Shown: positions 39,831-53,274 of the stretch, piece after piece
Layout: every line of letters starts with the position of its first letter
Numbering within the stretch: position 1 is the first letter of the stretch
Origin: Candidatus Omnitrophota bacterium
Lineage (GTDB): Bacteria > Omnitrophota > Gorgyraeia > Zapsychrales > Zapsychraceae
Assembly (NCBI GenBank): GCA_050250375.1
Contig: JBFWOS010000001.1
Span: 407,090 to 471,089, forward strand
DNA: 64,000 nt
Direction: 5' to 3'
Notes under the pieces: model-generated
What the model saw: the letters and a program-made list of their open reading frames with translations, nothing else
Told to the model about the DNA's origin: nothing
Databases searched by the model: none
Made by a program: the position numbers and the translations under genes

Positions 39831-39935
39831 TAGTATTATATTATTACTATAAATAATATAGTCCTTTTTTGGTTTGTACTATATTCGAAATGATTAAACT
39901 TGTCAAGGAATTTGTCCTGCCCTATAATACCTTTT

Positions 39936-40417: not shown

Positions 40418-42769
40418 TTGAAAAATCCTCTTGATTATAACAAACTACCGCACCCAAAAGAAAAACACCTATTTCTTTTAATAGTAATCCTCGAATTTCT
40501 TCAACTAATCTATTGCGTAATGTCTAACCGCCTGGTTGTTCACGACACATTTTTCCGTTTTTATATGCAATATTATTATCTCAACACCTATGTTAACTAT
40601 TTGGAATTTCCTTTTTGGATTCCTTACTTGACACATGGCACACTCGCGACTCCATGGCAAGGACTTGTAGGAATCCATGGGATCTTTAACAACACACTTT
40701 TTCTAACCGGAAATATTCTGAAATATGTTAATTTTTTACCCATATTCTATATGGGCGTTTTCTTTGACCGGTTAGTCCTGTTACTCGGAACATGGTATTT
40801 TTCAAAACGTTTATACAACTCCCCCCTAGTGTCATTCTTTGTTACTACCAGCATTTTAATTTCAAGCGTTTGGGCAAGTCAAATTCATCTCAATTTTCTT
40901 TTTTACTATGCAATCCCTCTCATCATTTATTTATTCCATCGTTTTCTCGAAACACAAAAATGGCGATATTGTTTTTTAGCGCTGAATCTTTTCAGCCTTC
41001 AATGTGTTGATAAACTGTTCTATTTCTTACCGGTTGTCAGTTTGACCATCTCATTGTATTTCTTTTTTTATGCCCTTCTTAATTTCCAGGAAGTGTCCAG
41101 CCACATAAAAAAAATTAAATTTAATTTGAATGGAATATTCTGTCTAGCTCTAGTTCTAACATCCGCGCTTGTCGTCTTTTATTTGGTTAAAATAGGCATG
41201 GCTGGCGATATCGTTAAAAATGTTTTTCAAAGAAATGAAGACGGTAGTGTTAATTTGAATATATTCCTCACTTACTCCCAAGATAATAGTCTAACGAAAT
41301 GGGCAGAACTTCTGCTTGGACTATCGATTAAGAACGACACCACTCTTTATTGCGGACTATTAATCCCACTAATGGCCTTATTTGCCCTCTCATTTAATTT
41401 AAACCGGAAAAGCCTCCCTTTGATTCTAACCGGTTTCACTCTTTTCTTATTTAGTCTTGGCTCAATCGTTTCCATATTCTTTTATCATAGCTGGCCGACC
41501 ATGAAATTTTATAGACACATATTCCAAATCGTTTCAATCGTTCGACTTTTTTTGTGTTTATTTTCCGGCTTCGGGTTCTTGAAATTATTTGAGTTTATCT
41601 TTTCGCAAACGCGCTCCCGTCTAGAATGTATATGGCTAGCAACTACCTCTCTTGGCGTTCTAATCGCTGGTTTGATTTTCTTCAATCAGGCAGGAAACAG
41701 CACCTACATTGTTGAATTCATCAAGCCCTTAACTTACGACACAGATTTAAACCTACTTGCTGGTAATAGCAGCCATTACTATTCATATTTTCGATTCTTA
41801 GGGATTAAGTATATTCTTTGTTCTTTACTGGTATCTTCGTTGTTATTCTTGAACAGGCCATCGAGAAAATGGGTTGTTTTTCTTTTAATTATATTTCATT
41901 TATTAGATGGATACATCTATACTCTAAAAGAATTTAATAACAGAACTGTAGCTATATCCCCCAAACAACTTTCACTTACCCAATTTCAACCAATAATTTA
42001 TAATAATAGGCGTTCTCAAGATGAGTTTTCATTATTTAACAGTCGTTTTGATCTGTTAACACCGGAGTTACTGTCCAAAAGCATGCTCAGCTGGAATATC
42101 CATGCGCTCATGTTTAATGACCCCTTTTATTCACAGCTAAGAACAGACCATTGGTTAAAACCGTATGATCAGTATACTACTATTGACCCGCTTGGATTAA
42201 AGAATGCAACAAAGAAAAAGTCTGGAATAACGGAAAATAAAATCCAATTCTTCCGGCAAGCATACTGCTCGGATAGCACCAAGACATCAAGAGTCATGGC
42301 CCTCCCAGAAAACGATGGCAACAATTTATTTCTCGAGTGTTTACCCGACGAACCTCCAACAAATCTTCTCAGCAAAGATTGGGAGGTACAATCAGCATTG
42401 AGATCAAATGACAGACTTTCTCTTTCCCCCATTATAAATTTTTTCAGTTCTAACAGAATTGAAATTGAAGTTTATAATCCGAGTAAACAACCCATCTGGC
42501 TCTTTTATAGTGATGTTTGGCACCCGTTTTGGAAAGTACAAGTCAATCATAAGGATTCACCTCTTTACAAAGCGGATATAGCATACAAAGCTGTTTTACT
42601 TGTTCCTGGGACTAATAAAGTCCTTTTCTATTTCTCTGCATCCACTTGGAGACTTCTAACCTTTTTAATTATTCTTAATTCTTTTTTTTGGTTCTGTTAT
42701 ATAATTTATTTATTAAAGTCTACAATTTTCCAAAATGACTCTGAAAAGGCAAAAAAATTACATCTGTGA
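40418..42769 (+). CDS. Large polytopic membrane protein, YfhO-like (GT-C-type) candidate glycosyltransferase
   Basis: 783 aa. About 13 TM helices fill the first ~480 aa, followed by a ~250-aa soluble domain ending …WHPFWKVQVNHKDSPLYKADIAYKAVLLVPGTNKVLFYF, then a final TM helix. This is the YfhO-family architecture. Confidence 0.45.
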   Translation: MKNPLDYNKLPHPKEKHLFLLIVILEFLQLIYCVMSNRLVVHDTFFRFYMQYYYLNTYVNYLEFPFWIPYLTHGTLATPWQGLVGIHGIFNNTLFLTGNILKYVNFLPIFYMGVFFDRLVLLLGTWYFSKRLYNSPLVSFFVTTSILISSVWASQIHLNFLFYYAIPLIIYLFHRFLETQKWRYCFLALNLFSLQCVDKLFYFLPVVSLTISLYFFFYALLNFQEVSSHIKKIKFNLNGIFCLALVLTSALVVFYLVKIGMAGDIVKNVFQRNEDGSVNLNIFLTYSQDNSLTKWAELLLGLSIKNDTTLYCGLLIPLMALFALSFNLNRKSLPLILTGFTLFLFSLGSIVSIFFYHSWPTMKFYRHIFQIVSIVRLFLCLFSGFGFLKLFEFIFSQTRSRLECIWLATTSLGVLIAGLIFFNQAGNSTYIVEFIKPLTYDTDLNLLAGNSSHYYSYFRFLGIKYILCSLLVSSLLFLNRPSRKWVVFLLIIFHLLDGYIYTLKEFNNRTVAISPKQLSLTQFQPIIYNNRRSQDEFSLFNSRFDLLTPELLSKSMLSWNIHALMFNDPFYSQLRTDHWLKPYDQYTTIDPLGLKNATKKKSGITENKIQFFRQAYCSDSTKTSRVMALPENDGNNLFLECLPDEPPTNLLSKDWEVQSALRSNDRLSLSPIINFFSSNRIEIEVYNPSKQPIWLFYSDVWHPFWKVQVNHKDSPLYKADIAYKAVLLVPGTNKVLFYFSASTWRLLTFLIILNSFFWFCYIIYLLKSTIFQNDSEKAKKLHL

Positions 42770-43482
42770 ATAATATGAATTTCCTTCAAATCACTAAACG
42801 CATCTTACTGTTGAGCGGAATAATATTATTTTCTATTACAGTCGTTACATTGTACTTTAGCATGACCATAAATGTTCCCCCGATCCTACTTATCAAAACC
42901 TTTGTAAATCAAGGTTATGTTTTGCACCATAACCTGGTACGCCCCTGCTCTGCATTTACTTTAAATTTTAATATTTATATATATTTTGTTTTGTTCTTTT
43001 CTACAGCTATTGCATTCATTTTCCAAAAAACTATTGTCAGAAATCTTGAGTTCACCTTTCAACAATTTATTTTTTGTATAATAAGCGTCTTATTCACTTT
43101 AGTATCTATGAACCAACTGTTTAACTTTCAATATTATTTTAAGTTCGAACAACAATTATTCGGAAACAAATCTCTTAGGGAAAAAAATTCTAATCTTTAT
43201 GAGGGAATTGTTTACAGATACTCCATCTTTTGTCATAATTTTATAAATGGCGCCCAAAATGCTCAACTAATTACTGATCTGGATCTGAACCGAGAACCCG
43301 GCATGCTGGATCACCGGATGCTGGCGTATTACCTATATCCGATCGACATCCGTAATGTCCGAAGAAAAGCCCCCGACTACCTGCTATTCTTTATGAAAAG
43401 AAACGCCAGCGATCATGTCCCTGATAACTTTAAAATAATCGCTGTGATAAATAAGGATAATTTGATCGCAAAAAGAAAATAA
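42766..43482 (+). CDS. Cassette 1 small subunit: 3-TM protein with the conserved C-terminal 'DPGML-HR…YYLYPIDIRN' domain
   Basis: Paralogous to 45786..46586 and 48130..48870. The track start is a GTG; the first ATG is at 42775. It is translationally coupled to the following gene. Confidence 0.5.
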   Translation: MNNMNFLQITKRILLLSGIILFSITVVTLYFSMTINVPPILLIKTFVNQGYVLHHNLVRPCSAFTLNFNIYIYFVLFFSTAIAFIFQKTIVRNLEFTFQQFIFCIISVLFTLVSMNQLFNFQYYFKFEQQLFGNKSLREKNSNLYEGIVYRYSIFCHNFINGAQNAQLITDLDLNREPGMLDHRMLAYYLYPIDIRNVRRKAPDYLLFFMKRNASDHVPDNFKIIAVINKDNLIAKRK

Positions 43483-43485
43483 AGC

Positions 43486-44871
43486 ATGGAAACGTTCATC
43501 CTAATACTGAATACATTAATCTTCCCAACGGTCTTCGGCTATTACCTCATCTGTTTATTGGATAACAACCAACCCTTCCCCTTCTCAGTCAAAATTGCTA
43601 TTGGATACGGCCTTGGTTTAGGTTGCCTTACCCAGTGGATGTTAATTTTATGCACCCTAAATATCCCTTTATCTTTTACAGTAGTTATTTCTCCCTTATC
43701 AATTCTCCTAATGTTTGTCTTCATAAAAATTAAATGCAAAAAAAGAATCTTGGGACCAACGGACGAACAATCTCAGGGGCTAAAATTAAATTTCTTATCA
43801 ATTCTACTCACAACCTATATACTTTTGTGTCTTGTATTTATTTTCTGGAGGACTTTCAACATACCTTTGTCTACGTGGGATGCATTTTCGTATAATGGCT
43901 TTGTCGCAAAAGCCATTTATTTTGAAAAATCATTATATTACTTGCCTAATATGCCTCATTACGAATACCCCCTGCATGCCCCTTTTATGCAAGTCTGGGC
44001 GTCCTTGTGTCTGGGGGAGTGGAACGATCTCTTTATCAATATTTTCTTCCCCTTTTATCTTCTCTTTTTCTTGGTTTTCTTATTTTATTTCTTAATTCAA
44101 TTTACTAGCCGTACATGGGCACTTCTCGGCCTAGCGCTTATTGTTTCTTCAAACTTATTGGTTCAACACGCTAGTATCGCGTATCGAGACATCCCGTTAA
44201 TGTACTACGTTAATATTTCGTTGTTGCTTTTAATTCTCGCCAATAAAGACGACGGATCGCGGAAAAAATTATTTTTATCCGGATTAATGGCGGGTATCGC
44301 TACTTCTGTCAAATTGGACGCTACAGGATATATCGTGGTGTTAACCTTTATCTTGTTATTCATGCTCTTTCTGAATAACTCAACCGCCACAAAACAAAAG
44401 ATTATTAATTTCCTTCTTTTTACTGTTCCTTGTTATTCGATCTTACTTTTCTTCAATATATATAAAATTCTAGTTGTGGAACCCAAAGCGCCTCAAATAA
44501 CTGGAGAAAAATTGAGCTTTGATCTTTATTCAGTCAAACTCAAATTCGGTGTTGAAGCACTAACACGATTTAATACCGTTGTAGCGAGAATCATGGACAA
44601 CTTATTCTTAAGCGGGAATTGGGGAATTGTTTGGATAATCTTCTTTTTTAGCTTGGTCCATTTACAAAAGGCAGAAAAATCGCTTGAAATAAGAATACTG
44701 TTAGTGGCGTTAATTGCCTTTTTCGGTTTACAAATAGTCGGGTATACGTTTACCCAATATTATTATTGGATTGCCGACACACATACGTCATTATCCCGGC
44801 ATTTACTCAGCCAGTTTCCTATTGTTGTTGCTCTAATTATACTTTTAAATGGACAAAAAATACAACCATAA
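43486..44871 (+). CDS. Cassette 1 large subunit: ~12-TM polytopic membrane protein (GT-C-like candidate)
   Basis: Conserved motifs shared with its two paralogs: FGYYLI, WDAFSY…AKAIYFEKS…YP, HASIAYRDIPLMYY, LSGNWGIVW. Confidence 0.55.
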   Translation: METFILILNTLIFPTVFGYYLICLLDNNQPFPFSVKIAIGYGLGLGCLTQWMLILCTLNIPLSFTVVISPLSILLMFVFIKIKCKKRILGPTDEQSQGLKLNFLSILLTTYILLCLVFIFWRTFNIPLSTWDAFSYNGFVAKAIYFEKSLYYLPNMPHYEYPLHAPFMQVWASLCLGEWNDLFINIFFPFYLLFFLVFLFYFLIQFTSRTWALLGLALIVSSNLLVQHASIAYRDIPLMYYVNISLLLLILANKDDGSRKKLFLSGLMAGIATSVKLDATGYIVVLTFILLFMLFLNNSTATKQKIINFLLFTVPCYSILLFFNIYKILVVEPKAPQITGEKLSFDLYSVKLKFGVEALTRFNTVVARIMDNLFLSGNWGIVWIIFFFSLVHLQKAEKSLEIRILLVALIAFFGLQIVGYTFTQYYYWIADTHTSLSRHLLSQFPIVVALIILLNGQKIQP

Positions 44872-44876
44872 CTCGA

Positions 44877-45752
44877 TTAAGACTTTACCAACAATAAATT
44901 CACATACCTTTCGCCGCGACACATTTCAATAATCTCTTCATTTTTGCATTGCCCGATGGTTCGTTCATGATCGTTGATTACAGAAATCTTAAATCCATGC
45001 TCCTCGATCAATTTAAGAAACTCAATCGGTTTAGACCGATAATGCGTAAAAACATCCGGAAAAAACTCGCAGAAAATAACTAAACTCTTATGACGGCTTA
45101 AAAAACTTTTCATCCCTTCGAATGCCAAAGGTTCCGCCCCTTGAATATCCATCTTGATTACATCGTATCGTTCATCAGTTTTAAAAAACTCGTCTAATTT
45201 TATTGACTGCACAGTAAAGGATGTCCTCTGATCACCCGAATCAAAAATTCGATGATCCCCTCTATTCTCTTCACAAAAATATAACTTTAACTCCCCCTTT
45301 AAATTTGATACCGCGCCCTGAAATACAGTCACATTTGCACATAAGTTTACATCTATATTTTTCTGAAGCAACCGATAGTTTTCCGGGTCCGGCTCAAACG
45401 CTGTTACGTGGCCTTCTTTACCAACCCATTTGGAAATTTGTAACGTATGATATCCTATGTTGGCTCCAATATCCAATACCTTCATGCCCGGCTTTATATG
45501 TTCTTTCATTAATGTTGTTTCATAGTCCTCTAGGGTGGCATATTTCCAAAATAACATGGCTGCTATTCGGTCCATTGTGTTTCCGTACATTATTTGTCCA
45601 CGGACAACGACCGCTAGATCTTTCCTTCGTTTCAATATTTTGGCGAGCATTCTTAGAAAAGGCCTAAACCAAGCTTGACGGGACAAAACATACAAGACCC
45701 TGAGGATAAAATAGACTGTCGACTTAAAGATGTATGCGCCGGTTATTTTCAC
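44877..45752 (-). CDS. FkbM-family SAM-dependent methyltransferase
   Basis: MKVLDIGANIGYHTL…AFEPDP…IKMDIQGAE. Confidence 0.8.
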   Translation of the reverse strand: MKITGAYIFKSTVYFILRVLYVLSRQAWFRPFLRMLAKILKRRKDLAVVVRGQIMYGNTMDRIAAMLFWKYATLEDYETTLMKEHIKPGMKVLDIGANIGYHTLQISKWVGKEGHVTAFEPDPENYRLLQKNIDVNLCANVTVFQGAVSNLKGELKLYFCEENRGDHRIFDSGDQRTSFTVQSIKLDEFFKTDERYDVIKMDIQGAEPLAFEGMKSFLSRHKSLVIFCEFFPDVFTHYRSKPIEFLKLIEEHGFKISVINDHERTIGQCKNEEIIEMCRGERYVNLLLVKS

Positions 45753-45785
45753 TGAATAGGAGAATGATAGATCTTTGTTAATTGA

Positions 45786-46586
45786 ATGCGCTGTACTATA
45801 TTGGAAATGATAACCCTTGTCAATAAAATTGTGCTGGCCTATAATGATTTAAATCGTATTAAAAACAAAGAAAGCATGAACAGATCCATTCTAAAATATT
45901 ATATTGCCCTCAATATACTTACTTTTTATCTTTTATTGAGCGGCCTCGCATTATATATGAAACTTCCAGAAAAGCATCTATTTGGTTTTCTGACAGAAAC
46001 TTCGTTCAAGCCGCACCAAAATATAATGCTCTATGGACAATTAAATCATATCCCCTTTCCAATATTCTTGTATGTTGCCATATTTGTCTTAACCATCATC
46101 TTATGGGTTTTTAATCGAGTGATCCATTCTGCGAATCCGAACAACTATCCTCTCGACTGCGTTCGGACTTTTTTCCTAATAAGCACCCTGTCAGTATTCA
46201 CGTTTCTATTAATAATACAAACAATATGTATATCTAAGGTTTGGGGCAAGTCTTTCGAACTTTTCGCAAATAAGACGGAAGTTGAAAAATTTCATGGATC
46301 AACCGTACAACAAAGCTTAATTATGGCTGAATTCTGTAAAAAATTCGCTCCTGGCACACAAAAAGCCAAATTCGAGACTGACCTGGATATCACGGAAGAT
46401 CCGGGCATGTTAATTCACAGGAGCTTTGCCTTCTACCTCTATCCCATTGATATCCGAAATATTTACCGCGGCGAGCCAAATTTATGGATTGCATTTCAAA
46501 AAAAAGAGGCAATTCGACATGTCCCCCGCGGATACAAAGTCCTCGGCATATTGGATGACCAAAATATAATAGCCATGAAAGAATAA
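45786..46586 (+). CDS. Cassette 2 small subunit (paralog of 42766..43482)
   Basis: C-terminal DLDITEDPGMLIHRSFAFYLYPIDIRN. The stop overlaps the next start (TAATG). An alternative start at M31 is possible. Confidence 0.5.
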   Translation: MRCTILEMITLVNKIVLAYNDLNRIKNKESMNRSILKYYIALNILTFYLLLSGLALYMKLPEKHLFGFLTETSFKPHQNIMLYGQLNHIPFPIFLYVAIFVLTIILWVFNRVIHSANPNNYPLDCVRTFFLISTLSVFTFLLIIQTICISKVWGKSFELFANKTEVEKFHGSTVQQSLIMAEFCKKFAPGTQKAKFETDLDITEDPGMLIHRSFAFYLYPIDIRNIYRGEPNLWIAFQKKEAIRHVPRGYKVLGILDDQNIIAMKE

Positions 46587-47962
46587 TGGATTTGCTATCG
46601 GTTACATTGTATTTATTAATCCCAACCACGTTGGGGTATTTCCTCGTAACCCTGCTCAGTTGGAAAACCCCCCTTCCATTCTTCGTAAAATTTATGCTTG
46701 GATATGGCATTGGAGCTGGCCTTTTAACCCACTGGGCGGTTATTCTCAGTTATTTCAAAATACCTTTTTGTGCAGTGTCAATCAATGTTCCGATCTTAGC
46801 CGTTACTTTACTTCTCTTTTGCTTAATTGCCAGAATAAAAAACAAGCCAAACTTAAAATTACTCAAATACAAACTAAAATTCGATACTATAAATTCCATA
46901 TTTCTCTTATTCAGTATTTACATTATATGTTTTATTTTTTGGTCTGGCACAAATATACCTATATCCGAATGGGATACCTATTCCACATTGGGACTAAAAG
47001 CAAAAACCATTTATTACGACAAATCCTTGAATTATTTACCGTATATCGGAAAATTTAATTACCCCATTCACTTAGAATTAATGCTTGCCTGGCTTTCATC
47101 TTGCCTTGGATACTGGGACAACACTGTCATAAAATTCGTTTTCCCAATGTCCTGCCTGGCCTATCTGGTCATACAGTATTATTTCTTAAGGCACTTTACT
47201 TCTGCTCGTTGGGCCTTATTTAGCATCGTATTACTTTTGTCTTCAGCATTTGTCGTTTATCATTCTTATATTTCATACCGGGACATTACCATGATGTTTT
47301 ACAACTGCACAGCCATTCTCTTAATTATTCTTTGGTATAGTCAAAAGCAGAATATGTATCTTGTCTTGGGAGCATTATTCTCAGGAATGACATCATTTAT
47401 AAAATTGGAGGGCTTCGGATATCTTGGCATTCACAATCTTCTGGTTTGGATGCTTATGTATTACATAAATTTTATTGACACGAAAAAAAAGACTAAATTA
47501 ACCATCCTGTTTGGAACCATCAGCTTCGGGATGTATGCACTTTTCATGTTTTATCGAAAACTTTACATCCTTCCTTTTGTACCACCGGAATTGCTTAATT
47601 CCGAACATTTTAACCTTTCACACCTCACTTTAAACCTCTCTGCCGACACTTTGTTCAGGATAAAAATCGTTATGAGACGCTACATCACGAACTTCTACTT
47701 AACCGGTAATTGGTCACTTGTATGGTTGTTTTTTCTTATCAGCGTTCTCCAAATATCAAACAAAAGAATATCTATGGAAATTAAAGCGTTTTTCTTTGTT
47801 TTAGGATTATTCTTTGTGGTATATCTTTTTTCTTATATCTTTACACAACATTACTTGTGGGTTGCATTTAAAGCCGATGTATTATCCCGATCTTTGCTCC
47901 ATATTTTCCCACTCATCACCATTTTAATTCCTTTATTAAATGTCCCGGAAGAGGTGAATTAG
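46586..47962 (+). CDS. Cassette 2 large subunit (paralog of 43486..44871)
   Basis: LGYFLV, WDTYST…AKTIYYDKS…YP, HSYISYRDITMMFY, LTGNWSLVW. Confidence 0.55.
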   Translation: MDLLSVTLYLLIPTTLGYFLVTLLSWKTPLPFFVKFMLGYGIGAGLLTHWAVILSYFKIPFCAVSINVPILAVTLLLFCLIARIKNKPNLKLLKYKLKFDTINSIFLLFSIYIICFIFWSGTNIPISEWDTYSTLGLKAKTIYYDKSLNYLPYIGKFNYPIHLELMLAWLSSCLGYWDNTVIKFVFPMSCLAYLVIQYYFLRHFTSARWALFSIVLLLSSAFVVYHSYISYRDITMMFYNCTAILLIILWYSQKQNMYLVLGALFSGMTSFIKLEGFGYLGIHNLLVWMLMYYINFIDTKKKTKLTILFGTISFGMYALFMFYRKLYILPFVPPELLNSEHFNLSHLTLNLSADTLFRIKIVMRRYITNFYLTGNWSLVWLFFLISVLQISNKRISMEIKAFFFVLGLFFVVYLFSYIFTQHYLWVAFKADVLSRSLLHIFPLITILIPLLNVPEEVN

Positions 47963-48129
47963 GCCAATGGAGCGCCCCAATGAAACCTGGCCACCATTTT
48001 GCATCAGAAAAGTTAATTTCTTTACAAAATCTTGTTAACATAAATAATAGTGTTATAAAATTACCTTACAAATAATATCCAAAACCCAATACAAAAATAT
48101 TAAACCATAAAGAAATCCGGGACATCGAT

Positions 48130-48870
48130 ATGTTCAAAATAGAAAAAAAAGATATCCTACTCACTTGCGCAGCATTCTCACTCTTTCTACTGCCAATTAT
48201 TTGCATGATGTCTTTCGCACTCGATATTCCTATTTCGACCGCAGTAACATTGATTCAGGCCAAACTATACAGGCCACATTTCAACATTTTTGAAGTCTAC
48301 CAAATTGGCGACGTTCATCCATTAAAAGCCCTATATATCGTATTACTTCTAACTGCACTCATTCTCATACTTTTCTACAGGATATCTCTTCCTAACAAAC
48401 TTTCAAAATATGCCCCACAACTTATATTTCTTACATATCTTCTGGGAATTCTAACAGTTGCAACCTTAAACTTTGTCATGCGAATAAAATATTATAAACA
48501 TGACCTGAAACTTTATCATGGAAAAACCTTAGATGAAAAAAACTTTCTTTTAAACCATGAGCCTTATCTTTTTGTTGAAAAGGTCCGGAATGTACTATCC
48601 GGTCGTCATAGTGGAGAATTCATCACAACCGAAAATCTTCTAGAGGATCCCCACATGACAACACACCGGATACTGTCTTTTTACCTCTATCCCATTATTT
48701 CATTACGTCTAGACAACAATACCCCAAAAGACATATTTATCTACTATCATACTGATGATTCTCGACTAAGGATACCTAACGATCAGAAAATACTGACCAC
48801 TTCCAATGACCTTAGTCTTACATTAACAATCAAAAATAAGGATTCATCCATACGTGATATTAATTTCTAA
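48130..48870 (+). CDS. Cassette 3 small subunit (more diverged paralog)
   Basis: C-terminal LEDPHMTTHRILSFYLYPI. It overlaps the next gene by 17 nt. Confidence 0.45.
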   Translation: MFKIEKKDILLTCAAFSLFLLPIICMMSFALDIPISTAVTLIQAKLYRPHFNIFEVYQIGDVHPLKALYIVLLLTALILILFYRISLPNKLSKYAPQLIFLTYLLGILTVATLNFVMRIKYYKHDLKLYHGKTLDEKNFLLNHEPYLFVEKVRNVLSGRHSGEFITTENLLEDPHMTTHRILSFYLYPIISLRLDNNTPKDIFIYYHTDDSRLRIPNDQKILTTSNDLSLTLTIKNKDSSIRDINF

Positions 48871-50251
48871 TATTCTGATTAGTTTGCTTATACCCCTTTG
48901 CTTTGGGTATTTAATCTTACTTAAATTATGTAAGTTTAGATTGCCATTGCCTCTTGAACTATCCATTGGATTTGGAACTGGATTTGGACTGTTATCCATT
49001 TGGATGTTGTGCTTAGATATTCTTAATCTTCCGTTCAACCGCACGAACATTAGCGCACCAATATTGATCTTATCTTGTGTTCTTGCAATAAATGTAATGA
49101 AAAGCAAGAAAAACAAAGAAAAACCTCTCCTGTTTAACCAAGAAACTCCGATTACCAATCAATTATCTGATTTTTTTCAAATTACGATTATGGGCATTCT
49201 AATTACATATATCCTATTGAATATTTTCTATGTATATTGGAGAGCGTTGACGTTTCCTGTATACTGCTGGGATGAAATCTCAACTATTGCGTTTAAGGCC
49301 AAAGTTTTCTTCCACGAAAAATCTATCCCCGAATTGAACTTACTTCCCCATCAATCATATCCGCTTTTAACTCCTCTAGTCGAGTCTTGGACAGCTTTTA
49401 ACTTAGGCTATTGGAATGACAGTTTAATTAAGATAATTTTTCCTTTAATTTTCTCAGCGTACTTATGCACTCATTATTATTTCCTTTGTCTCAATACGAA
49501 TCGACGGTGGGCTATTTGGGGGGTAGCATTATTGCTCTCAAGCAACTTCTTTTTATTTCACGCAACAATCGCCTATCGAGATTTCATTCTCATGTATTAT
49601 ACGTGTTCAGCGATTATCTTGTTGTTGTTCTGGCGGCAAACTCGTTGCAATTCATTTCTTTTCCTATCGTCGCTATTCTCAGGATTTGCAACATTTACAA
49701 AACTTGAAGGAACAGCCTACATGTTAATCTTTCTGATTATTTTTCTAATAATAGAAGTTAAAAATCAAACGATCAAGGCAACCAGAAGAATTAAAAACGC
49801 ACTTATTTTCACAATTCCAAGTTTATCCTTAGCATCCTTATTTCATTTATATAAAATATTCCATAATGCCGAAAAAGATGGTCTCGGTCACATAGACAAA
49901 ACTCATTTTGAAGTTTCTTTTGATAAAGCCTCACTGACACCCCAAATCCTCAGCAGCTTTTCTGAAAATCTATTCCTTTCAGGCAATTGGAACCTGCTAT
50001 GGGGCGCTTTACTTATCACTCTTCTACTGTCCTTAAGAAGGCCAAAAACGTTTGAATCTAATATACTATTAACCAGTTTATTTTTATTTTTTGGGCTGCA
50101 TACCTGTGTCGCCGCCTTCTCTTCAAATTTCATCTGGATTGCTGGGGAATTAAATACCACCACGTTATCTAGACTAATCCTGCACTTCTTTCCGTTGGCA
50201 GTTTTGGCGATTATTCTAATCAATTTTTCTTTATTGAAAGACAGTGATTAG
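48854..50251 (+). CDS. Cassette 3 large subunit (paralog of 43486..44871)
   Basis: FGYLIL, WDEIST…AKVFFHEKS…YP, HATIAYRDFILMYY, LSGNWNLLW. Confidence 0.55.
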   Translation: MILISNILISLLIPLCFGYLILLKLCKFRLPLPLELSIGFGTGFGLLSIWMLCLDILNLPFNRTNISAPILILSCVLAINVMKSKKNKEKPLLFNQETPITNQLSDFFQITIMGILITYILLNIFYVYWRALTFPVYCWDEISTIAFKAKVFFHEKSIPELNLLPHQSYPLLTPLVESWTAFNLGYWNDSLIKIIFPLIFSAYLCTHYYFLCLNTNRRWAIWGVALLLSSNFFLFHATIAYRDFILMYYTCSAIILLLFWRQTRCNSFLFLSSLFSGFATFTKLEGTAYMLIFLIIFLIIEVKNQTIKATRRIKNALIFTIPSLSLASLFHLYKIFHNAEKDGLGHIDKTHFEVSFDKASLTPQILSSFSENLFLSGNWNLLWGALLITLLLSLRRPKTFESNILLTSLFLFFGLHTCVAAFSSNFIWIAGELNTTTLSRLILHFFPLAVLAIILINFSLLKDSD

Positions 50252-51030
50252 GTTGTTTTTTGAAGTTCAATTTTACAAAACATTCCCACCCACGAATTTA
50301 AAGGTGAAATTAGGACTTCAAGAAATTTAACCAAAGGATATGTGCATGACGGCACAAGTTGTCTCATTGAGACGCCACCACTGAGCAAATATCGAATAGG
50401 TGTATGATTTTGGTATGATTTAATCTTAAGAGAAGGATACTCTTGTTGAAATTTGGCGCGATCCCTAAAAAATATTATCCACGGGAGTGCTCCATTGGCA
50501 TCTGACATCGGGCCATCACCTTCAATATTCCACCCGGAGGCCGGATCAAATTGCTCGTGATGGAAATTCTGAAACACGAATCTGCTCCATATCGTATTCG
50601 CCGGCTCAATCATAACAATTCTTCCATTGACTTTAAGACAGCGGTCCATTTCGGTTAAAATTCTTCGAGGATTCTTTATGTGATGCAAAACATCAATCAT
50701 TAGAAATGCATCGACACTATTATTTCCAAACGGCATCGCCTCAGCGGAGAAACAAAGATCAATCCCCTTTAAATCAAGTACATCTGAGGTGAAAACTTTT
50801 GGATTGATTTCCTTTATAAACCCGCCCCCACTTCCTAATTCTATAAACTTTCCGTTAGGGAATTGTTGAATAATTTTCTTAAATATCAGATAATTTTCAT
50901 TATAGATTTTCGTTAGAAAGGGTTTATTTTTGATAATACGGGAATGTAATTCAGTGGTACGTGGATCATCCAGACTTGTTATCGTATCAACTTCTGGGAG
51001 TTTCAACCATTTTTTTAGGTGTTCAATCAT
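50248..51030 (-). CDS. Class I SAM-dependent methyltransferase
   Basis: ELGSGGG…VDAFLMIDVLHH…GRIVMIEP. Confidence 0.75.
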   Translation of the reverse strand: MIEHLKKWLKLPEVDTITSLDDPRTTELHSRIIKNKPFLTKIYNENYLIFKKIIQQFPNGKFIELGSGGGFIKEINPKVFTSDVLDLKGIDLCFSAEAMPFGNNSVDAFLMIDVLHHIKNPRRILTEMDRCLKVNGRIVMIEPANTIWSRFVFQNFHHEQFDPASGWNIEGDGPMSDANGALPWIIFFRDRAKFQQEYPSLKIKSYQNHTPIRYLLSGGVSMRQLVPSCTYPLVKFLEVLISPLNSWVGMFCKIELQKTT

Positions 51031-51098
51031 TACTTTATTATTGCTGTAGCTGGTTTTGTCAAGGACAACATTCTTGTTAATGCATAATATGTGAAAGA

Positions 51099-51833
51099 TT
51101 AATTCCCTTTCTTTTCAGCCGTTATATATAGTGAACCCGAAATCTCCTTAAGCAAGGCTGCCTTTTCCAAGACATTACCGAACTTGGAGACAATAGGAAT
51201 CAAGACTTCTGGTGTTAAGGGATGCAGAAAATCAAACGGTTGGATTCTAATATTTGTAAAATGACACTTTTCCAATAACCCTAATAATTGCCACCGCGAG
51301 AAAGCTGTTTCATCAGGGCTTACTCGCGCCAGCTTTCGAATAAATTTAAAACTTCGCTCCAAGAAAATTTGCGGATTCAATATATTGGGTTCAGTAAAAG
51401 AAATACCCCCTCCAGGTTTAAGAACCCGGTGGCATTCTATTAAAGCCTTTTCAATGTCCAAATGATGTAGAACCGAACTCCCTATAACAGCATCAAATTC
51501 CGCATCCCTATAAGACAATTCATAGGCGTTTTCAAGTTTAAAAGTGACATTTGAAGAAGTCACACGGTTCCGGGCGACCTCCAGAAGATCCGGTGAAATA
51601 TCATTTGCGATTATGTTCGCGCCGCTTTGCGCCAAATATTCTGTGAAATATCCAACACCACATCCCAATTCTAACACCGTCATACCTTTCAAAATATGCC
51701 TGGTGAGCATTTCAACACGTCTTTGTCTACGAATCTGTCCAGCTGGAGTTTCCCAATACCATAAGGTACCAGACCAGGATTCTTTCAATAGTTTTCCATG
51801 TTCAATTTCATTCTTAATGCGCTGATCAGACAT
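51099..51833 (-). CDS. Class I SAM-dependent methyltransferase
   Basis: VLELGCGVGYFT…FDAVIGSSVLHHL…LKPGG. Confidence 0.8.
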   Translation of the reverse strand: MSDQRIKNEIEHGKLLKESWSGTLWYWETPAGQIRRQRRVEMLTRHILKGMTVLELGCGVGYFTEYLAQSGANIIANDISPDLLEVARNRVTSSNVTFKLENAYELSYRDAEFDAVIGSSVLHHLDIEKALIECHRVLKPGGGISFTEPNILNPQIFLERSFKFIRKLARVSPDETAFSRWQLLGLLEKCHFTNIRIQPFDFLHPLTPEVLIPIVSKFGNVLEKAALLKEISGSLYITAEKKGN

Positions 51834-51840
51834 GGCAGGA

Positions 51841-53274
51841 CTAATCTTCTCTTTTAATATAGAATTCTCGGCGGGGAACCAAAATAAGTTCTCTAAATCC
51901 TCTTATACACGCTGCCAGCAAATGCATACCGTGCTTGAAAGATCTCATTTTTGATTCTCCGGAAACCCGTGATTTATAATGAACCGGGACTTCCATGATT
52001 TTACTTCCCAGTTTAGCAGCTCCAAATAACAGGTCAAAATCTCCCCACTTGTCTTTTCCCCACTTTATGCGTTTGAAATCTTTCTTATAAAGAGCTTTCG
52101 TTCCGCAAAGTGTATCTGTCAGATTCTGTTGAGTAATAAAACTCATAATCCAACCAAAAATTTTATTCCCGAATAAATTAATCATACGCATAGCCTGGTC
52201 TTCCATCGGATAGACAAGTCGTGTCCCATTCACAAATTGACAGAGCCCTTTGTTTAATGGGTTAAAAAATCGTGGGAGCTCTTCAGGCGGAGTTGAAATA
52301 TCGGCATCCAAGATCATGATTATTTCTTCCTCCGCAGCATCAAATCCGGCCTTAACAGCCTGGCCTTTCCCGCGATTCGGGCTATAATCAATTAGTTTTA
52401 AATTCGGAAATTCAGCCTGCAAGGACCGGACTTTAGCCGCTGTTCCGTCTTTACTTCCGTCATTGACAACAACAATCTCCGTTCGTTTACCCATATGAGG
52501 TACCCGTCGAATAGCATCCTCAATATTCCCTTCTTCATTATAACAAGGGATGATGACGGAACATCCACATCCCAAATCCGTTTTATTTTCAGGCTCAGGT
52601 TGGATCGTAAGATACTGGGTTGAAGAAAGCAAACTGAATGGCCATAACCGGATTCCTACCGAATTGGCTAAATATGATAAAAACGGAATATATTTTGGAA
52701 AAAGCAACAAGTGTCCATAATAACTGACAGAAAAATCCATTAACTCTATAACTTTAAAGAGACTGCGCCGTTCAATAAAGTTATGCGGACCTTCCGGCAT
52801 CTTTGCATTGATTTTTTCCATGAACATCAGGATCGGGTCCCACCATGGATTAATCGTTGTGAGAAAAATCTTGGTCGTTGGTTTACAAAACTTGTAGGCA
52901 CTTCGGAATACATCCATGACATCGTATACATGATCAACGATATCGACCATAATAATATAGTCAAACTTTTCATCCAAGTTAAAATCTTCCACCGGTGAAT
53001 GAATAAATTCATACTGGGGGAATTTCTTTCTGGCAACCTTGAGCATTTCTTCACTGAGATCCACCCCAACCCCCCTTGAAGGCTCCATATATGCCAAGAT
53101 TTCTCCCGTACCGCATCCAAATTCAAGAACGGAACTTCCTTTGGGAATCATCTGTGAAATAAAAGCCTTAAGGGTATTGTAATAATACGCATTTTTTTGC
53201 TTCCAATAGTCGTAATTCGGGGCAATTTTATCAAAATGTTGCCGGACTTCATCTTTGGTCATTATAGGTGTCAT
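51841..53274 (-). CDS. Fusion protein: N-terminal class I SAM methyltransferase plus C-terminal GT2 polyprenol-phosphate glycosyltransferase (DPM1/CsbB-like)
   Basis: N-terminal VLEFGCGTGE…DYIIMVDIVDHV. C-terminal SVIIPCYNEEGNI…VVNDGSKDGT…ILDADIS…DTLCGTKA. Confidence 0.75.
   Translation of the reverse strand: MTPIMTKDEVRQHFDKIAPNYDYWKQKNAYYYNTLKAFISQMIPKGSSVLEFGCGTGEILAYMEPSRGVGVDLSEEMLKVARKKFPQYEFIHSPVEDFNLDEKFDYIIMVDIVDHVYDVMDVFRSAYKFCKPTTKIFLTTINPWWDPILMFMEKINAKMPEGPHNFIERRSLFKVIELMDFSVSYYGHLLLFPKYIPFLSYLANSVGIRLWPFSLLSSTQYLTIQPEPENKTDLGCGCSVIIPCYNEEGNIEDAIRRVPHMGKRTEIVVVNDGSKDGTAAKVRSLQAEFPNLKLIDYSPNRGKGQAVKAGFDAAEEEIIMILDADISTPPEELPRFFNPLNKGLCQFVNGTRLVYPMEDQAMRMINLFGNKIFGWIMSFITQQNLTDTLCGTKALYKKDFKRIKWGKDKWGDFDLLFGAAKLGSKIMEVPVHYKSRVSGESKMRSFKHGMHLLAACIRGFRELILVPRREFYIKRED

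Follow-up and report, generated by a model that had tools for sequence, protein, structure and literature searches.

Small three-helix membrane proteins encoded with compact GT-C glycosyltransferases in Omnitrophota: candidates for dedicated enzyme subunits

A 64,000-nucleotide stretch of DNA from a Candidatus Omnitrophota bacterium (assembly GCA_050250375.1, contig JBFWOS010000001.1, positions 407,090 to 471,089 of the forward strand; referred to as the window) carries three genes for small membrane proteins, S1 to S3, each immediately upstream of a gene for a large polytopic protein, L1 to L3. Omnitrophota are uncultured, very small bacteria. An earlier note on this DNA, made from the sequence alone, had pointed out the three small proteins and proposed that they are partners of a 'large subunit', which it did not recognise as a GT-C glycosyltransferase. 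We favour, with somewhat better than even confidence, the reading that S and L make up a two-chain GT-C enzyme in which S is a dedicated auxiliary subunit. Gene order and sequence divergence make it most likely that each S forms a specific 1:1 complex with the L encoded just downstream. The six genes are:

42766–43482, + strand: S1, ORF (open reading frame) of 238 residues; small protein with three transmembrane (TM) helices and a putatively periplasmic alpha/beta C-terminal domain
43486–44871, + strand: L1, 461 residues; predicted compact all-helical GT-C glycosyltransferase
45786–46586, + strand: S2, second small paralog; maximal ORF of 266 residues
46586–47962, + strand: L2, 458 residues; GT-C paralog
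48130–48870, + strand: S3, third small paralog, 246 residues; 'YPIISLRLDN' replaces 'YPIDIRN'
48854–50251, + strand: L3, 465 residues; GT-C paralog with a GTG start

S1, S2 and S3 are true paralogs. In composition-adjusted pairwise BLASTP comparisons, S1 and S2 match with an E-value of 5e-31 (30% identity over 233 residues), S1 and S3 with 1e-12, and S2 and S3 with 8e-11. Their shared motif blocks are located at 43279–43365 (S1), 46380–46469 (S2) and 48631–48708 (S3). The three L proteins are 34–38% identical to each other. The three related plus-strand ORFs of the earlier note, each directly upstream of a paralog of the large protein, were thus found as described. All three S/L junctions look translationally coupled: L1 begins 3 nucleotides past the S1 stop (TAA, one codon, ATG), S2 and L2 overlap in a TAATG stop/start, and the start of L3 overlaps the end of S3 by 17 nucleotides. 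S1 and L1 share a reading frame (43480–43488), which is probably incidental because the other two pairs overlap in different frames. The NCBI-called start of S1 is the ATG at 42775 (P0002, 235 residues). For S2, the maximal ORF is probably over-extended and ATG 45876 (236 residues) the true start rather than 45786, because homology to the S family starts at 45867 and because an overlapping, divergent sigma-70-like promoter pair (45795–45845, 11 of 12 matches on each strand), situated between the FkbM gene described below and S2, falls within the 5' end of the maximal ORF.

According to its structural model, L is a compact all-helical GT-C glycosyltransferase. L1 to L3 themselves have no Pfam match at E ≤ 0.1. 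Among 28 aligned L relatives, however, 14 match PMT_2 at E ≤ 0.01 (best E-value 3.9e-8) and two match PMT; all 33 L relatives are 447–486 residues long. The AlphaFold2 (AF2) model of L1, with a predicted local distance difference test score (pLDDT) of 86.5 and a predicted TM-score (pTM) of 0.91, is wholly helical and lacks a soluble domain. When it was compared with the PDB by Foldseek, ranks 1–28 were all occupied by GT-C enzymes, with probabilities of 0.57–1.00 and query-normalized TM-scores (TMq) of 0.33–0.49. The matches include Pmt1-Pmt2, AftA, Pmt4, ArnT, ALG9, ALG12, AglB and PglB, and further AftB, PimE, EmbB, DPY19, PIG-U and Gpi14; ArnT reaches the highest TM-score among them (TMq 0.48–0.49). 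All members of the L family have Asp132, and at least 90% have Trp131. Both lie about seven residues past the helix 103–125, in a long loop with a lysine plus arginine (K/R) density of 0.053. This low density, together with the K/R-rich loops 26–32 and 85–102, suggests that the Asp132 loop is periplasmic, as the N-terminus of L would be.

The S-L pairing extends well beyond the window. We retrieved 36 related loci (L001–L036), in part with an 8-sequence S sub-alignment, and hidden Markov models of S and L were run on the six-frame ORFs of all fetched loci. In the window and L001–L022, each of the 27 S genes has an L-family gene behind it on its own strand, with a start less than 150 nucleotides downstream, the intervals between the aligned regions ranging from a small overlap to about 30 nucleotides. 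S is likewise followed by L for all 14 S genes of the metagenome loci L023–L036. Adjacency is therefore found in 41 of 41 cases over the 36 loci and the window, a count that includes a few duplicate regions (for example L002/L003; L008/L024 and L009/L025 also look duplicate). This result speaks for the proposal that S is a partner of the large polytopic protein. The pair is kept in unrelated neighbourhoods, among ExbB/ExbD and TPR genes in L002 and among PFK and PilZ genes in L022. Two L relatives found from the L side (P0039 and P0044) both have an S gene upstream. No S-L fusion protein was seen among the 33 L relatives and the best 150 S matches.

S and L also diverge together. The distance matrices of 19 full-length pairs are correlated with r = 0.84, a value reached by 0 of 5000 Mantel permutations. 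Shared phylogeny explains part of this correlation, not the type-specific pairing of paralogs. L001 has all three pair types of the window, and L006 contains one S2/L2-type and one S1/L1-type pair, with S and L having nearest neighbours of the same type in each. By this distribution of types, the S-L duplication predates the split from the related genomes, in agreement with the older duplication that the earlier note had supposed. In matched pairs S evolves somewhat faster than L (for example 56% versus 61% and 31% versus 48% identity). Tandem S-L arrays occur elsewhere, at L004 5–1418, L006 3287–7993 and L014 133–4343. In L006 a cinA-like ORF separates the two pairs; in L014 two pairs are in direct succession, and a split or frameshift seems to interrupt the second L gene between 3187 and 3177.

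Hydropathy analysis gives three TM helices for S, and the AF2 model of S1 (mean pLDDT 80.6, pTM 0.55, from an alignment of 14 sequences) agrees with it, placing them at residues 3–32, 65–91 and 95–129 with a short helix (36–45) inside the first loop. The C-terminal part, which had been noticed as a soluble domain, forms a compact alpha/beta domain of about 105 residues in the model, with strands at 162–166, 202–205, 219–224 and 230–234 and helices at 134–156, 176–187 and 211–214. The pLDDT is about 95 at the C-terminus. Across 98 diverse members of the family, the K/R density is 0.21 in the N-terminal tail and loop 2 compared with 0.075 in loop 1, and 81 of the 98 follow this bias. Further, two separate cluster representatives, P0012 (L005 215–1609) and P0061, carry a cytoplasmic LigT domain at the N-terminus of S within one ORF. 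This domain is a LigT/2',5'-RNA-ligase-like phosphoesterase; the ORFs may be real fusions or a run-on of adjacent genes, and served as a topology hint only. Because of the charge bias and the N-terminal LigT fusions, the N-terminus of S is predicted to be cytoplasmic, and the conserved C-terminal domain would therefore be periplasmic.

The family is far larger than the three genes of the window. A word-indexed search returned 14 S clusters, all unnamed or annotated as 'hypothetical protein'; the copies of the window itself are from a Candidatus Omnitrophota metagenome-assembled genome. The search for related loci gave genome matches in Omnitrophota (7), Planctomycetales (5) and one unclassified metagenome-assembled genome. 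An exhaustive profile search found 408 representatives (clusters at 50% identity) at E ≤ 1e-3, 157 of them at E ≤ 1e-30. Nearly all of the best 150 of these 408 are 200–260 residues long. Those exceeding 300 residues among the best 150 are the two LigT fusions P0012 and P0061 and P0133, which has an N-terminal extension without Pfam match. S1 to S3 have no Pfam match, and NCBIfam gives only sub-threshold noise from TM segments. When the 98 members were compared with Pfam, no family matched more than one of them at E ≤ 0.01; the commonest at E ≤ 10 was DUF4131 (eight members, best E-value 0.014). PDB profile searches with the 14- and 98-member alignments gave nothing better than an E-value of 0.28, and the Foldseek comparison of the S1 model with the PDB nothing better than 2.4. 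S is thus an uncharacterised family without consistent match in Pfam, NCBIfam, or PDB sequences or folds, as had been surmised for its motif.

The strongest conservation of S is found in the C-terminal domain, which is not hydrophobic. The most conserved positions, as percentages of the 98 members, are:

Pro189: 100%
Leu187: 94%
Tyr188, Asn53 (loop 1) and Ala232: 92% each
Pro216: 90%
Tyr185: 89%
Asp168 and Arg193: 88% each
Gln114 (TM helix 3): 87%
Arg181, Lys208 and Tyr70: 85% each
His of the 'HR' motif: 67%; Gln, Tyr or Arg elsewhere

Two suggestions of the earlier note did not survive this comparison. A catalytic role had been proposed for the conserved His and Arg residues. The Arg of the 'HR' pair is conserved in 85% of the members, but the His in only 67%, so that an essential catalytic His is unlikely; the position conserved throughout is Pro189. 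The lack of the DIRN segment in S3 had been taken as loss by divergence. The variant 'YP[IT]IS[LM]RLDN' is, however, common to P0005, P0006, P0009 and P0010, and by this recurrence is a stable conserved subtype, not a sign of decay.

The S-L pairs belong to a gene cluster spanning 40418–53274, bordered by cinA and riboflavin genes at one end and by a BaxI gene at the other. Its remaining members are:

40418–42769, + strand: polytopic membrane protein of 783 residues, family unknown, with about 11 hydrophobic segments
44877–45752, − strand: FkbM-type methyltransferase between pairs 1 and 2; orthologues beside S-L in L006, L009 and L025
50248–51030, − strand: S-adenosylmethionine (SAM)-dependent methyltransferase convergent to L3; orthologues beside S-L in L008, L013 and L024
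51099–51833, − strand: SAM methyltransferase (Methyltransf_11/25); orthologues beside S-L in L006, L007, L009, L014 and L025
51841–53274, − strand: N-terminal SAM methyltransferase fused to a GT2 polyprenyl-phosphate glycosyltransferase (assigned by kinship)

The closest PDB relatives of the GT2 domain in the last protein are Dol-P-Man synthase (2.5e-17), ArnC (2.9e-17) and GtrB (2e-12), and by this kinship it is a polyprenyl-phosphate glycosyltransferase. The methyltransferase part resembles the dTDP-aminosugar N,N-dimethyltransferases TylM1/DesVI (E-value about 5e-11). The fusion protein presumably makes the lipid-linked sugar donor, and its composition hints at a methylated, possibly amino, sugar. 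Orthologues convergent to S-L are present in at least 12 loci (L001, L006–L010, L013, L014, L024, L025, L031 and L032). Judged by sequence relationships, the gene set fits a scheme of periplasmic glycosylation in which a lipid-linked monosaccharide serves as donor.

These data can be combined into a scheme for which we infer the topology of S, complex formation, the role of the S periplasmic domain, the donor and the acceptor. The methyltransferase-GT2 protein would attach a sugar, which may be methylated, to polyprenyl phosphate on the cytoplasmic side of the membrane. Once this product has been flipped, the S-L pairs would each pass the lipid-linked sugar to a periplasmic or envelope acceptor. 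L would provide the putative catalytic loop with the invariant Asp132. The TM helices of S would pack on L, and its periplasmic domain would sit over the active site and either stabilise the enzyme or select the acceptor. The three diverged S-L pairs may then serve three acceptor sites or linkages.

Several observations weigh against a dedicated subunit. The structure models cover the single chains S1 and L1 only; that of S1 comes from a shallow alignment (14 sequences) and has a pTM of 0.55, and the Foldseek E-values of L1 are modest (6e-3 to 0.9), though the list of matches is uniform. The soluble domain of S has no detectable likeness to solved structures, either by Foldseek (best E-value 2.4) or by PDB profiles. 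We also considered it as a detached C-terminal domain of the ArnT/PMT_2 type, and rejected this at the sequence level after an hhalign comparison with the whole 537-residue PMT_2 protein of locus L019 (E-value 0.5). Since the domain resembles neither solved structures nor that protein, the idea that it replaces a missing periplasmic domain of L is a bare analogy. Adjacency and co-divergence would also be expected from a tightly coupled function without a stable complex. Finally, no recognisable GtrA-like or SMR-like flippase is encoded in the 64-kb window, where the small membrane proteins near the cluster are PgpA and a CDP-alcohol phosphatidyltransferase, and S could fill that role.

The last point leads to a different reading, in which S is a translocase or donor-delivery part that flips the polyprenyl-phosphate sugar or hands it to the GT-C enzyme, like GtrA or ArnE/ArnF. 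The polyprenyl-phosphate GT2 and GT-C enzymes are present, and S, a small multi-TM protein, conserves polar residues that lie within or close to the membrane (Asn53, 92%; Gln114, 87%; Tyr70, 85%). We nevertheless regard such a role as quite unlikely: neither GtrA nor EamA/SMR is among the Pfam families listed for the 98 members, three S genes stand against one GT2, and S duplicates and diverges with L, not with the donor-making enzyme. Moreover, S-L pairs without adjacent GT2 exist (for example in L002 and L022), and conservation in S peaks in the soluble domain of about 105 residues, for which a flippase would have no need. S might instead be an independent periplasmic protein anchored in the membrane, either an enzyme such as a transferase or hydrolase or a binding protein such as a phosphate-binding module, that acts on the same glycan before or after L and is adjacent to it for co-regulation only. 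Charged positions of the soluble domain are indeed conserved (Thr/Ser167; Asp168, 88%; Asp/Asn170, 96% combined; Arg181, 85%; Arg193, 88%; Lys208, 85%). They surround a beta-loop-alpha unit of the S1 model (strand 162–166 and helix 176–187), of the type that forms ligand sites in Rossmann-like folds. This is also unlikely in our judgement, since S resembles no enzyme family or fold, its domain is very small (about 105 residues) and the supposed catalytic His is only 67% conserved; the adjacency in 41 of 41 cases, the stop/start overlaps and the type-specific pairing are tighter than usual for successive enzymes of a pathway.

Adjacency and co-divergence also fit with S as a transient factor for assembly, insertion or stability, or a regulator, of L that stays outside the active enzyme, and its faster evolution is in line with this. 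Translational coupling suggests, however, that S is made in about equal, not catalytic, amounts, and one dedicated S paralog per L points to a specific lasting interface, so that we give such a factor a low probability. The remaining objection, that the S proteins resemble each other by chance or through the composition of hydrophobic, AT-rich ORFs that are not real genes, starts from the low GC content (34–37%) and from long spurious ORFs in other frames. It is refuted by composition-adjusted E-values down to 5e-31 and by hundreds of homologues of the same length, and conservation is strongest in the non-hydrophobic C-terminal domain; its probability is practically negligible.

GT-C glycosyltransferases build or decorate lipid A, cell-wall glycans and glycoproteins, and the bacterial enzymes are generally treated as single chains carrying their own periplasmic domain. 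If the subunit reading is true, an obligately paired small subunit would be a new architectural type of GT-C enzyme and offer a way into the encoding of acceptor specificity. About 400 clusters of 'hypothetical proteins' from two poorly studied phyla would gain a role, and the cluster would point to a pathway of envelope modification with methylated sugars in Omnitrophota.

The gene for the 783-residue protein is probably the first of an operon with S1 and L1, because its stop overlaps the S1 start. The protein has no Pfam, NCBIfam or PDB match, and comparisons with S and with L as possible relatives were both negative; a counterpart (808 residues) was found in L001 only. A second overlapping, divergent sigma-70-like promoter pair lies at 39878–39928, between ribBA and cinA (11 of 12 matches on each strand). 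Every 2-kb bin of the window has a negative GC skew (−0.10 to −0.24), and outside the S-L cluster the minus strand carries nearly all genes, which places the window within a single replichore. The plus-strand S-L cluster opposes this local orientation, and its GC content is 34–37% compared with about 40% elsewhere.

Among known systems, ArnT and other PMT_2 enzymes are close to L in several respects: L relatives match PMT_2, ArnT has the top TM-score for L1, and an ArnC/DPMS/GtrB-like GT2 accompanies L in the genome. ArnT, PglB/AglB and the Emb proteins possess a periplasmic domain. In contrast, L1 to L3 are below Pfam detection, and L is all-helical, about 460 residues long and without a C-terminal periplasmic domain. 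According to the charge bias, three TM helices precede the invariant-Asp loop in L, which is always accompanied by an upstream S partner; to our knowledge, ArnT has no such partner.

The GtrA-GtrB-GtrC and CsbB/GtcA/YfhO systems have the same general layout, in which a GT2 makes the polyprenyl-phosphate sugar, a small membrane protein is present, and the extracytoplasmic transfer of the sugar falls to a GT-C enzyme. GtrA and GtcA are proteins of about 120 residues with four TM helices and no soluble domain, one per donor. S differs from them in its three TM helices, its conserved, putatively periplasmic domain, the lack of a family match and its occurrence once per GT-C enzyme.

A similar gene arrangement is found at two loci of more distant L relatives. 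At L020 2787–4001 and L021 3–1373 a different membrane protein is encoded immediately upstream of an L-like GT-C gene, with overlapping stop/start and a C-terminal soluble segment in which a loose 'EK...Y.F...P...Y.L.P' pattern recalls S. These upstream proteins are longer (404–456 residues) and have an extra N-terminal domain, and profile-profile comparisons with S give probabilities of 7% and 0.1%. They may be distant analogues of S, but there is at most a hint that they are diverged S proteins, since one local hhalign match (E-value 0.0047, probability 7%) vanished when profiles were used on both sides (0.1%). They have a sub-threshold match to DUF6798 (E-value 0.02), a family for which we found nothing relevant in the literature; some of their relatives carry SGNH/GDSL lipase domains (PF13472).

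We found no described bacterial accessory subunit of a GT-C enzyme in the literature, and the nearest counterpart comes from eukaryotes. There the compact GT-C enzyme Gpi14/PIG-M depends on Pbn1/PIG-X, a subunit that is anchored in the membrane and has a luminal domain (PMC12653191). As we propose for L and S, a GT-C protein of about 400–460 residues without a soluble domain of its own is associated 1:1 with a membrane-anchored protein (PMC12653191). The soluble domain of this partner lies on the non-cytoplasmic side and adjoins the active site (PMC12653191), a position that we infer for S. The fold matches of L1 include Gpi14 (9wno_A), with a target-normalized TM-score (TMt) of 0.48. The glycosylphosphatidylinositol (GPI) mannosyltransferase I is eukaryotic and located in the endoplasmic reticulum, whereas S-L is bacterial; Pbn1 is anchored by a single TM helix at its C-terminus and has a large luminal beta-sheet domain, whereas S combines three TM helices with a small alpha/beta domain at the C-terminus. 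No Pbn1/PIG-X chain is present among the 50 PDB fold matches listed for S1, nor does S have a PIG-X Pfam match, and the likeness is one of architecture by analogy, not of family kinship. Tentatively, and with somewhat less than even confidence, we propose that S-L is a two-chain bacterial GT-C enzyme and the counterpart of PIG-M/PIG-X, its acceptor-facing periplasmic module residing on a separate three-TM chain without a solved fold relative. If this is true, duplication of S-L pairs would give rise to diverse acceptor specificities in the cell envelopes of both Omnitrophota and Planctomycetota.

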